Assembly: GCA_045126975.1 (NCBI GenBank)
Contig: JBGVPL010000001.1
Span: forward strand, 8,642-72,641
Reading direction: 5' to 3'
Origin: Candidatus Aphodosoma sp.
Lineage (GTDB): Bacteria > Bacteroidota > Bacteroidia > Bacteroidales > Paludibacteraceae
Length of the DNA stretch: 64,000 nucleotides
Position numbers and translations under genes: made by a program. Position 1 is the first letter of the stretch; every line of letters begins with the position of its first letter. Positions 59,574-60,506 of the stretch are shown here, piece by piece. Below the pieces are notes generated by a model. The model saw only the letters and a list, made by a program, of their open reading frames with translations, was not told the DNA's origin and made no database searches.

Positions 59574-60506
59574 TTAGCTACGAATGTCGGCACCCCACAT
59601 GAGTTTTGTTTTTAGTGTACTGAGGAATGAGTGGTTTTCGAGGCGGATGATTTGGACGGTGTGGTTGGCTTTTGAGATTGATATTGTGGTGGAGTCGGGC
59701 ATTGTGATGCTTCGTCCGTCTATAGATGCGAGGAATGAGTGGCTACGAGATGATACTTTTAGGTCGATACGCCAATCGTCAGGGATGATGAGTGGACGCA
59801 CGTTAAGTGAGTGTGATGCAACGGGCGCGATGATGAGGTTGTGGTTTTCGGGCATCATGATTGGTCCGCCAACACTGAGTGAGTAAGCGGTTGAGCCTGT
59901 TGGGGTTGCGACTAATAGTCCGTCGGCTTGATAGGTATGTAGGGGTTCGCCATTGAGTTGTACGTCGATGGAAATCATTGATGATAGGTCTTGTTTGAGG
60001 ACGGCGATTTCGTTGAGAGAGAACTCAATTGAGTTGAGAGTTGAGAGTTGAGAGTTGAGAGTTTGACCCCCTCCCCCTTTGGGTACTCCCCCTAAGACAG
60101 ATGGAGAATAACAGATTTCAGCACGGAGAACCATACGGTCTTCGATTCGGTATTTGTGGTTGAGTATTATGTCATCGAGGTTGTCGAGTTCGTGGGCTTG
60201 CACGTCGGTGAGAAATCCTAATCTGCCGAGATTGATGCCGAGAATTGGTATTTGGCGATTGCCTATGCGGTTGGCAGTTGACAATAGTGTGCCATCGCCA
60301 CCAAGACTGATTGCGATGTCGCCAGAGAGGTCATTGTCGAATGTGGCGAAAGAAGTGATGTCGAGTAATCCTGATTCATTGATTTGGTCGGCAAATTCTT
60401 TGTCGAAAAGGATAGTTGCACCACGCTCTTTTAGTTTGAAGAATAAGTCTTTAACTAAGTTAATAAACTTTAGTTTATATTTATTGCCAAATACTAAAAT
60501 TCGCAT
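59574..60506 (-). CDS. nadK: NAD kinase (carries a ~27-aa repeat-derived insertion)
   Basis: GGDGTLL motif, NLGRLGFL, ADGLLVATPTGSTAYSLS. The start is set at M40 (MRILVFGN), downstream of a minus-strand TAACTTTG box (complement of 60621-60628). Confidence 0.93.
   Translation of the reverse strand: MRILVFGNKYKLKFINLVKDLFFKLKERGATILFDKEFADQINESGLLDITSFATFDNDLSGDIAISLGGDGTLLSTANRIGNRQIPILGINLGRLGFLTDVQAHELDNLDDIILNHKYRIEDRMVLRAEICYSPSVLGGVPKGGGGQTLNSQLSTLNSIEFSLNEIAVLKQDLSSMISIDVQLNGEPLHTYQADGLLVATPTGSTAYSLSVGGPIMMPENHNLIIAPVASHSLNVRPLIIPDDWRIDLKVSSRSHSFLASIDGRSITMPDSTTISISKANHTVQIIRLENHSFLSTLKTKLMWGADIRS
60031..60112 (-). repeat. Composite repeat inside nadK: GGGGAGG-family hairpin element (60066-60112) fused to a CTCAACT x5 array (60031-60065), in frame
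   Basis: The minus strand reads tattctccatctgtcttagggggagtacccaaagggggagggggtcaaactctcaactctcaactctcaactctcaactca. It is translated as YSPSVLGGVPKGGGGQTLNSQLSTLNS. Confidence 0.85.

Follow-up and report, generated by a model that had tools for sequence, protein, structure and literature searches.

A double-hairpin element and heptanucleotide repeats in frame within the NAD kinase gene of Candidatus Aphodosoma

Rickettsia palindromic elements (RPEs), repeats of ~100-150 bp, lie in frame in many unrelated genes, including housekeeping genes (PMC10969869). Intragenic MITEs (transposable elements of the miniature inverted-repeat kind; e.g., ERIC, BOX, and Correia) are small non-autonomous repeats that give rise to occasional in-frame fusions (PMC10969869), and heptanucleotide tandem repeats, the STRR and TAACTGA repeats, occur in cyanobacteria, Beggiatoaceae, and some Bacteroidetes (PMC4679880). 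The present analysis concerns a stretch of 64,000 nucleotides (nt) from Candidatus Aphodosoma sp. (Bacteroidales; Paludibacteraceae; GenBank assembly GCA_045126975.1, contig JBGVPL010000001.1, positions 8,642 to 72,641 of the forward strand), the whole of which is referred to as the window and is numbered from its first letter. The NAD kinase gene of the window, nadK, carries in frame a composite of a dispersed double-hairpin element and an array of AACTCTC heptamers. With a probability estimated at about 0.8, this insert represents selfish or near-neutral repeat DNA that colonized a permissive loop of the enzyme and was filtered by selection on the reading frame, within a lineage-wide colonization of Ca. 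Aphodosoma genomes by two linked kinds of repeat, the element and the heptamer arrays. A survey of the literature on Aphodosoma, Bacteroidales REP sequences, and heptanucleotide repeats returned nothing relevant beyond the RPEs and the TAACTGA repeats.

The composite insert in nadK and its variants

No route to NADP other than NadK is known, the enzyme is essential in every case tested, and its NE motif contacts the substrate in NadK structures; where the window gene is called essential, the term refers to this general knowledge of NadK and not to the organism at hand. The gene, located at 59574..60506 on the minus strand (310 residues counted from its ATG at 60506 with the stop), encodes a genuine NAD kinase. 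Pfam places NAD_kinase (PF01513) at residues 5-119 (55.8 bits versus a cut-off of 25.5) and NAD_kinase_C (PF20143) at residues 164-289 (95.8 bits versus 23.7), with the insert region lying between the two matches and covered by neither domain. The motifs GGDGT (69-73), LNE (164-166), and the Gly-rich TPTGSTAY-x-S-x-GGP, here TPTGSTAYSLSVGGP (201-215), stand in order and in frame, and all are invariant in 29 relatives. The sequence matches of the protein in the PDB are NAD kinases (7mh7, 7qvs, and 1u0r), and alignment with these solved enzymes leaves a gap of ~18-20 residues facing the insert.

A preliminary description of this locus, made from the sequence of the window, held that the nadK frame reads straight through the insert and that the conserved motifs on both sides stay in frame. 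The sequence confirms this: the minus-strand open reading frame (ORF), ...RAEI-CYSPSVLGGVPKGGGGQTLNSQLSTLNSI-EFSLNEIAVL..., is free of stop codons, with GGDGT upstream and TPTGSTAYSLSVGGP downstream. Along the coding strand the segment is ordered GAAATC / TGTTATTCTCCATCTGTCTTAGGGGGAGTACCCAAAGGGGGAGGGGGTCA / AACTCTC x4 / AACTCAATT / GAGTTC. The 50-nt element copy (60064..60113, minus strand), in which TGTTATTCTCCATCTGTCTTAGGGGGAGTACCCAAAGGGGGAGGGGGTCA would be translated as CYSPSVLGGVPKGGGGQ, matches the element profile with an nhmmer E-value of 1.6e-12, and the 5' arm of its first hairpin is degraded (CTCCATCT versus AGGGGGAG, with one mismatch and one G-U pair). It is followed by four perfect AACTCTC heptamers (60036..60063 on the minus strand, which is the coding strand) that encode (T)LNSQLSTLNS and for which Tandem Repeats Finder gives a period of 7, 4.7 copies, and 100% match over 60031-60063. 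This unit is open in all three frames of the coding strand. Next stands a perfect palindrome, AACTCAATTGAGTT (60022..60035, minus strand), which holds a variant fifth unit, AACTCAA, together with the start of the conserved EF codons, and whose internal TGA is the premature stop of the frameshifted allele described below. The array first reported as five CTCAACT units is composed of four perfect AACTCTC units and one variant rather than of five identical copies. The reported insertion of ~82 nt is similarly present as a composite, with its size amended: the loop is 21 residues longer than in outgroups, and the segment exceeds a conspecific allele by exactly 57 nt. A predicted tryptic peptide spanning the insert is, for example, GGGGQTLNSQLSTLNSIEFSLNEIAVLK.

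At residues 135-157, the insert lies just before the conserved LNE strand, as had been noted, and its expected position in a loop agrees with structural modeling. The AlphaFold2 model (mean predicted local distance difference test, pLDDT, of 68.9; predicted TM-score, pTM, of 0.66) resembles the solved NAD kinases 7qvs, 2an1, and 1u0r (TM 0.65-0.78, E down to 5e-25). In this model, residues 135-157 have pLDDT values <50 and are flanked by strands 119-132 and 159-163, with the NE motif carried by the second strand. The insert is thus modeled as a disordered segment in the loop between two beta-strands ahead of the NE motif, and the conservation of the rest of the protein in insert-bearing lineages suggests that a NadK bearing it keeps its enzyme activity.

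Comparison with relatives indicates that the expansion of this loop is specific to the clade. The closest NadK relatives among species-representative genomes come from Candidatus Aphodosoma and Paludibacteraceae metagenome-assembled genomes from animal guts (76-85% identity, with the next at ~51%). The spacing between GGDGT and TPTGSTAY is 109-112 residues in ~45 outgroup Bacteroidales loci (Paludibacteraceae, Segatella, Phocaeicola, Dysgonomonas, and others) versus 110-142 in the Ca. Aphodosoma clade, where the window has 132. Since the outgroup spacing is fixed, repeat-free orthologs have no homologous residues at the position of the insert, contrary to the outcome that the preliminary description had named as refuting. 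Among 120 NadK homologs that are 78-99% identical, the loop ranges from 7 to 39 residues and the protein elsewhere is almost invariant. In the compared loci (L numbers), the loop DNA consists of CACTCCT x4 (L009), AATGCAC arrays interrupted by an additional 27-nt insert (L014), AACTCTC x4 after a different insert (L008), the same element copy as in the window followed by a decayed array (L004), or a decayed element that starts at the very same nucleotide as the window copy (L007), and in some relatives the loop is filled with nothing. Rather than one recent insertion, the locus shows a loop that is hypervariable throughout a genus.

Presence and absence also vary within one species. The window allele belongs to a 31-member protein cluster found on dozens of independent ENA contigs, and related alleles bearing the element form >40 further protein clusters. 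A conspecific allele (L001/L002) with 99.2% nucleotide identity and 99.7% core protein identity to the window lacks exactly 57 nt, corresponding to the 50-nt element plus one heptamer (60057..60113, minus strand, the choice of the heptamer counted being arbitrary). Since the element is of length 3n+2 and the heptamer of length 3n+1, the frame is kept only when the two are combined, and selection against lengths other than 3n would account for the loss or gain of the element together with one 7-nt unit. The AACTCTC copy number among strains is 2, 3, or 4. Over ~45 contigs, the members of the window-allele cluster are all full length except one (L087 3001-3576; ENA ERZ27298660, contig k141_9204, 15.4 kb), which has two AACTCTC units versus four (-14 nt). 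Its ORF stops at the palindrome TGA after 191 residues, and the C-terminal half of the protein is in another frame. The slipped-strand frameshift hazard raised in the preliminary description has here an assembled example, which is either a real variant or an assembly error.

The dispersed element, its heptamer arrays, and other host genes

The element is ~47-50 nt long and consists of two adjacent GC-rich hairpins and a G-rich tail, with the consensus ATATTC-YCCCCCT-GTTTT-AGGGGGRG-TGCCC-GAA-GGGC-GGAGGGGGTT. The canonical intergenic copies in the window, at the two sites that the preliminary description had named, read ATATTCCTCCCCTGTTTTAGGGGAGGTGCCCnnnGGGCGGAGGGGTTTT followed by TTTCAAC heptamers, the same order of element and array as in nadK, and canonical copies were matched in 0 of 100 shuffles. 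One lies at 8541..8592 on the plus strand, with seven TTTCAAC units and then AACTCTW units carrying the composite to 8653, where it ends 8 nt before the ATG of a Band-7/SPFH gene; the other, at 40268..40319 on the plus strand, continues to 40328 with two TTTCAAC units and has an AAGGAAY heptamer array before it. A partial copy with hairpin 1 only was recovered as a profile match at 8469..8501 (plus strand). In the nadK-region loci of Aphodosoma species, a profile search recovered ~17 distinct copies, and a pattern scan of metagenome contigs yielded 80 loci with 124 element matches, mostly from one metagenome that also holds the conspecific nadK allele. Among the ~17 copies are four from a related species (L004 11012-11187) that are arranged head to tail in intergenic DNA with a period of ~42 nt. 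Two loci on contigs labelled Segatella copri and Acutalibacteraceae (L024 3924-3980 and L085 3281-3338) contain a relative of the element in which the loop of the first hairpin is longer (CTCCCCCT-GCTGCGCAGCAGAT-AGGGGGAG-TACCCAC-GCA-GTGGGGG-AAGGGG) along with some perfect heptamer arrays, and their NadK is Segatella-like with a loop of standard length. The element family may extend beyond Aphodosoma.

The hairpins are reflected in covariation. Among 17 aligned copies, 90% of cells are paired and compensatory changes occur at 7 of the 12 pairs, a score that was reached by 0 of 500 shuffles and that slid controls remained well below. Folding z-scores span -0.9 to -2.3 overall, and the fold of minimum energy joins the 5' arm to the distal G-run; given these weak energies, covariation rather than energy is taken as the structural support. 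Searches against Rfam 15 gave no match at gathering thresholds on the whole window (only a tRNA) or in E-value mode on the element, for which the best sub-threshold match was MicA (20 bits versus a 41-bit cut-off). An exact 18-mer of the element was absent from viral contigs, giving no sign of a phage vector.

The association of the element with heptamer arrays is directional. An array of at least three heptamers begins within 15 nt after 15 of 109 element copies and precedes 1 of 109, compared with 1.1% of random positions (p = 1.6e-12). The array units differ by site (e.g., TTTCAAC, CTCAACT, ACACTAA, TGTTGAC), and the element subfamily found in nadK is repeatedly followed by AACT[CT]TC. The element may target arrays, or arrays may arise at its 3' end, which could seed them, for example by slippage at a stalled fork. 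The AACTCTC array of nadK more likely derives from a genome-wide family than from local native TCTCTCAAC (SLN) codons, because this unit also forms arrays elsewhere (47083-47107 in the window, L102, and L119).

Five other arrays in the window are in frame within genes, and in all five the unit is stop-free on the coding strand. They lie in an IF-2-like gene (infB; 12411-12442), a TolC-like OEP gene (22295-22326), the gene for a 3161-residue Laminin_G_3 surface protein (30539-30569), a Lamin-tail/CHU_C gene (34810..34836, minus strand, of the CTCTCAA type and encoding ILNSQFSTLNS), and a PAD_porph agmatine-deiminase-like gene (37925-37957). The peptide HNAQCTMHNAQ, from an in-frame array type of the window, also fills the NadK loop of related species. 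Period-7 arrays are numerous between genes as well, with ~25 in the window and many different units (e.g., 6580-6604, 8587-8653, 11829-11885, 14913-14943, 36474-36513, 42891-42910, 59381-59403, 60516-60549, and 62196-62245), and 14 of the 25 end no more than 13 nt upstream of a start codon. The array at 60516..60549, TCAAATT x4.9 when read on the nadK strand (minus), is separate from the insert and ends 9 nt upstream of the nadK start codon.

The element itself, which is open in four of the six frames, recurs in frame in many unrelated genes. In the window, an antisense copy (16158..16207, minus strand) encodes QPLSPTDSSPKTGEQY within a short-chain dehydrogenase (SDR) gene (15709-16578, plus strand), and a sense copy (33380..33429, minus strand) encodes YSPPILRGEPKGEVVN within the gene for a Lamin-tail/CHU_C (type IX secretion) protein (33006-35426, minus strand), which also holds the array at 34810..34836. 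The SDR of the window has 289 residues versus 237 in baseline orthologs without the element and contains two hypervariable insertion sites, in its relatives P0142 and P0150 with a 25-residue insertion nested inside the site-2 element. Site 1 (~15835-15940) is a decayed element, and site 2 is the antisense copy at 16158-16207. The fmt gene of L004 has two in-frame copies, one followed by heptamer-encoded NNSQFST, and fmt orthologs without the insert exist. Hosts confirmed by Pfam in the metagenome loci include a sigma-54 response regulator, a PD40/OmpA protein, RNase R, Tex, DinB, and a TonB-dependent receptor, and in the PD40/OmpA protein the composite peptide is that of NadK (...PVLGGVPKGGGGSNSQLSTLNSQL). 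In the sense orientation the frame is always the one that gives YSPPVLGGVPxGGGG, and copies occur in both open antisense frames as well. Of the full-length copies in the metagenome loci, 26 of 109 fall inside long ORFs versus 66% of random windows, so that the element is depleted from coding sequence and yet far from excluded from it.

Weighing the explanations

Under the interpretation of the insert as selfish or near-neutral repeat DNA, a composite of the element and an AACTCTC array would have lodged in the beta-hairpin turn ahead of the strand bearing the NE motif. As a surface loop may tolerate extra disordered residues, the composite would be translated, helped by the four open frames of the element and by the stop-free AACTCTC unit. 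The loop would then evolve near-neutrally, with heptamers slipping, the element decaying or being lost, and other pieces inserting, while selection on the enzyme would purge lengths that are not multiples of three. We infer that the element is mobile, that its peptide is neutral, and that the enzyme remains active. Several points weigh against this interpretation. No transposition was seen; comparison of filled and empty sites in nadK and the SDR gene gave no clear target-site duplication, since the flanks have diverged too far, and no clean empty site can be defined. The thermodynamic hairpin signal is modest (z = -1.8 to -2.3), the AlphaFold2 model is of moderate quality (mean pLDDT 69), and the activity of the insert-bearing enzyme is presumed from conservation. 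Additionally, the 3' half of the element is more conserved than would be expected had one old insertion simply decayed neutrally: between the window and L004, nadK is 81% identical overall (60% at third codon positions), yet the two element copies are 100% identical over 37 nt of the 3' half and differ at 5 of 20 positions of the 5' arm. This identity could result from gene conversion from other copies, from a mutational bias against the C-run arm, or from constraint on the G-rich half.

These observations lend some plausibility, short of an even chance, to repeated renewal of the nadK copies, whether by insertions at a hot spot or by gene conversion from master copies, with an element that is currently active. 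The 30-37-nt identity of the 3' half between the window and L004 fits such renewal, and the match extends to dispersed copies: 30 nt of the 3' half of the nadK copy are identical to those in L102 and L119, and the copies in L110, L159, and upstream of DUF559 genes in L136 are identical or one mismatch away. The decayed copy of L007 resembles a different subfamily with a hairpin 2 of the GGTCGAAGACC type, and presence or absence varies within one species, both as renewal would allow. However, every nadK copy begins at the same nucleotide, directly after GAAAT[ACT], an insertion point common to species whose nadK genes are only 81% identical in nucleotides, which speaks for an old copy, and the copies have in common a derived 5' string, T[GA]TTATTCT, in place of the family consensus ATATTC. 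This insertion point and this derived string, both held in common, favor a single ancestry of the nadK copies, and the substitutions that separate their 5' arms differ from copy to copy, as they would among old orthologs.

Recruitment of the insert for a function, either as a Gly/Pro-rich regulatory or interaction loop or as an mRNA structure tuning nadK expression, appears improbable. In its favor, the peptide VLGGVPKGGGGQT is near-invariant over ~40 protein clusters of one lineage (P0006-P0043) in which the flanking loop residues vary, and nucleotide conservation of the 3' half exceeds the synonymous expectation. Against it stand the conspecific strains that lack the insert in an otherwise 99.7% identical core protein, the sister lineages that fill the loop with 7-39 unrelated residues, the freely decayed copy of L007, the occurrence of the same peptide module at linkers and loops of unrelated proteins, and the modeling of the segment as disordered. 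Still less probable is a phase-variation switch for nadK operating by slipped-strand mispairing at the array. A unit that is not a multiple of three, copy numbers of 2, 3, or 4 among strains, and one assembled out-of-frame allele are features that such a switch would display, but NadK is known in general as the sole route to NADP and as essential wherever tested, the out-of-frame state occurs in just one of ~45 contigs of the window allele, the array is short (four units), and identical arrays in many housekeeping genes fit hitch-hiking rather than regulation. An assembly or gene-calling artefact, suggested by the repetitive nature of the region and the discordant copy number of L087, can be dismissed, given that the same sequence occurs in dozens of independent assemblies from different samples and assemblers, that neither the array (33 nt) nor the element (50 nt) reaches the length of a sequencing read, and that the reading frame is intact with conserved flanks.

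An intron, an intein, or a bypassed segment was also considered and rejected. For these the insert is too small, and it keeps the frame and lacks stop codons; moreover, the length of each intact allele is divisible by three, a constraint that would be unneeded if the segment were removed.

DUF559 genes, wider context, and comparison with known systems

Clustering and all-against-all comparison of 622 ORFs from the 80 element-bearing loci revealed no recurrent transposase and no RAYT. Small DUF559 genes (PF04480, E ~1e-26) recur beside the element, and in 7 of 7 contexts they are bracketed by it, with a sense copy ending 10-40 nt before the ATG and an antisense copy at or just after the stop. 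This arrangement is seen in L095, L101, L118, L136 (two tandem cassettes), and L158, and in two further chromosomal contexts from other assemblies (aroE / DUF559 / transglutaminase and nth / DUF559 / pgk). The loci with DUF559 genes so flanked include L184-L193. There are none of these genes in the window or in the nadK-region loci, and their closest homologs are mostly on very short contigs, as is usual for multi-copy sequences. Over 30 nt, a single mismatch separates the upstream element of L136 from the nadK copy. As a tentative hypothesis rather than a result, the element could be the non-autonomous partner of a small DUF559 nuclease (Vsr-like PD-(D/E)xK), in a REPIN-RAYT-like arrangement. 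A literature search for links between DUF559 and repeats found nothing making this connection. If true, DUF559, a widespread family of unknown function, would receive its first proposed role, the way in which a short structured repeat spreads between genes and, in frame, within dozens of housekeeping genes of a gut commensal would be accounted for, and a new class of repeat-mobilizing system would be possible.

If the insert is selfish or near-neutral repeat DNA, then the in-frame colonization of essential genes by such repeats would not be confined to reduced intracellular genomes and would extend to a common genus of gut Bacteroidales, where it uses a much smaller element together with 7-nt arrays that would be expected to break the frame. 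The loops of NadK, Fmt, RNase R, Tex, and others would constitute a natural tolerance experiment in accepting 7-39 extra residues, and selection on the frame would couple indels that are otherwise independent (50 + 7 = 57 nt). On the practical side, loci of this kind give length-variable proteins and occasional frameshifted gene calls in metagenome assemblies.

Some features of the window are separate from the repeats discussed so far. At 49389-52141 on the minus strand lie a BspA-type leucine-rich-repeat protein and a REase-ARP / PD-(D/E)xK nuclease, in a stretch (48-52 kb) with a guanine-plus-cytosine (GC) content of 0.34 that adjoins ribosomal-protein and EF-Ts genes; the region 49389-52141 may be an acquired island. 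Intergenic tandem repeats of longer period, unrelated to the heptamers, are present at 55886-55999 (33 nt x3.5) and 23044-23099 (22 nt x2.5). The GC skew is strongly and uniformly positive (the cumulative skew rises throughout) and most genes are on the plus strand, which fits a single replichore arm, with nadK, fmt, and lon oriented against the prevailing direction.

Set beside known systems, the insert unites traits of REP-like repeats with those of heptanucleotide arrays. Contingency loci resemble the nadK array in having a unit that is not a multiple of three inside an ORF, with a copy number that varies by strain and an out-of-frame allele. They differ in that the host here is a core metabolic enzyme rather than a surface, restriction-modification, or virulence gene, the array is short, and out-of-frame alleles are rare and presumably either lethal or erroneous. 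The window also recalls the STRR and TAACTGA repeats, as its 7-nt arrays are abundant between genes and many end a few nucleotides from a start codon (14 of 25 within 13 nt), whereas it has many units rather than one favored heptamer, its arrays are directionally associated with a hairpin element, and they also occur in frame in coding sequences (nadK, infB, the TolC-like and agmatine-deiminase-like genes, and large surface proteins). Compared with intragenic MITEs, the element is smaller and its in-frame copies are much more frequent; neither terminal inverted repeats nor target-site duplications were identified for it, the flanks of the compared sites having diverged too far.

The resemblance to REP and REPIN sequences is closer in structure, as these are also short, structured, high-copy palindromes with compensatory changes in their arms and a tendency to form tandem clusters (as at L004 11012-11187). 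With REP/RAYT systems, the element further shares an arrangement in which inverted repeat copies stand on both sides of a small and often single-copy gene, in the present case E(+)-DUF559-E(-) in 7 of 7 contexts. The bracketed gene is nevertheless DUF559 and not a Y1 (IS200/IS605-like) transposase, with no RAYT in the fetched loci, and REPs are extragenic by definition, whereas 26 of 109 full-length copies of the element lie in long ORFs. The RPEs are likewise a dispersed palindromic family that is found in frame in unrelated genes, gives a conserved peptide per copy, occupies sites tolerated by the fold, and also occurs between genes. Their sequences have no relationship to the Aphodosoma element, which at 47-50 nt is shorter, is coupled to heptanucleotide arrays, uses all four of its open frames, is linked to DUF559 genes, and inhabits a gut member of the Bacteroidales rather than an obligate intracellular alphaproteobacterium. 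The Aphodosoma element works like an RPE without being a member of the RPE families.

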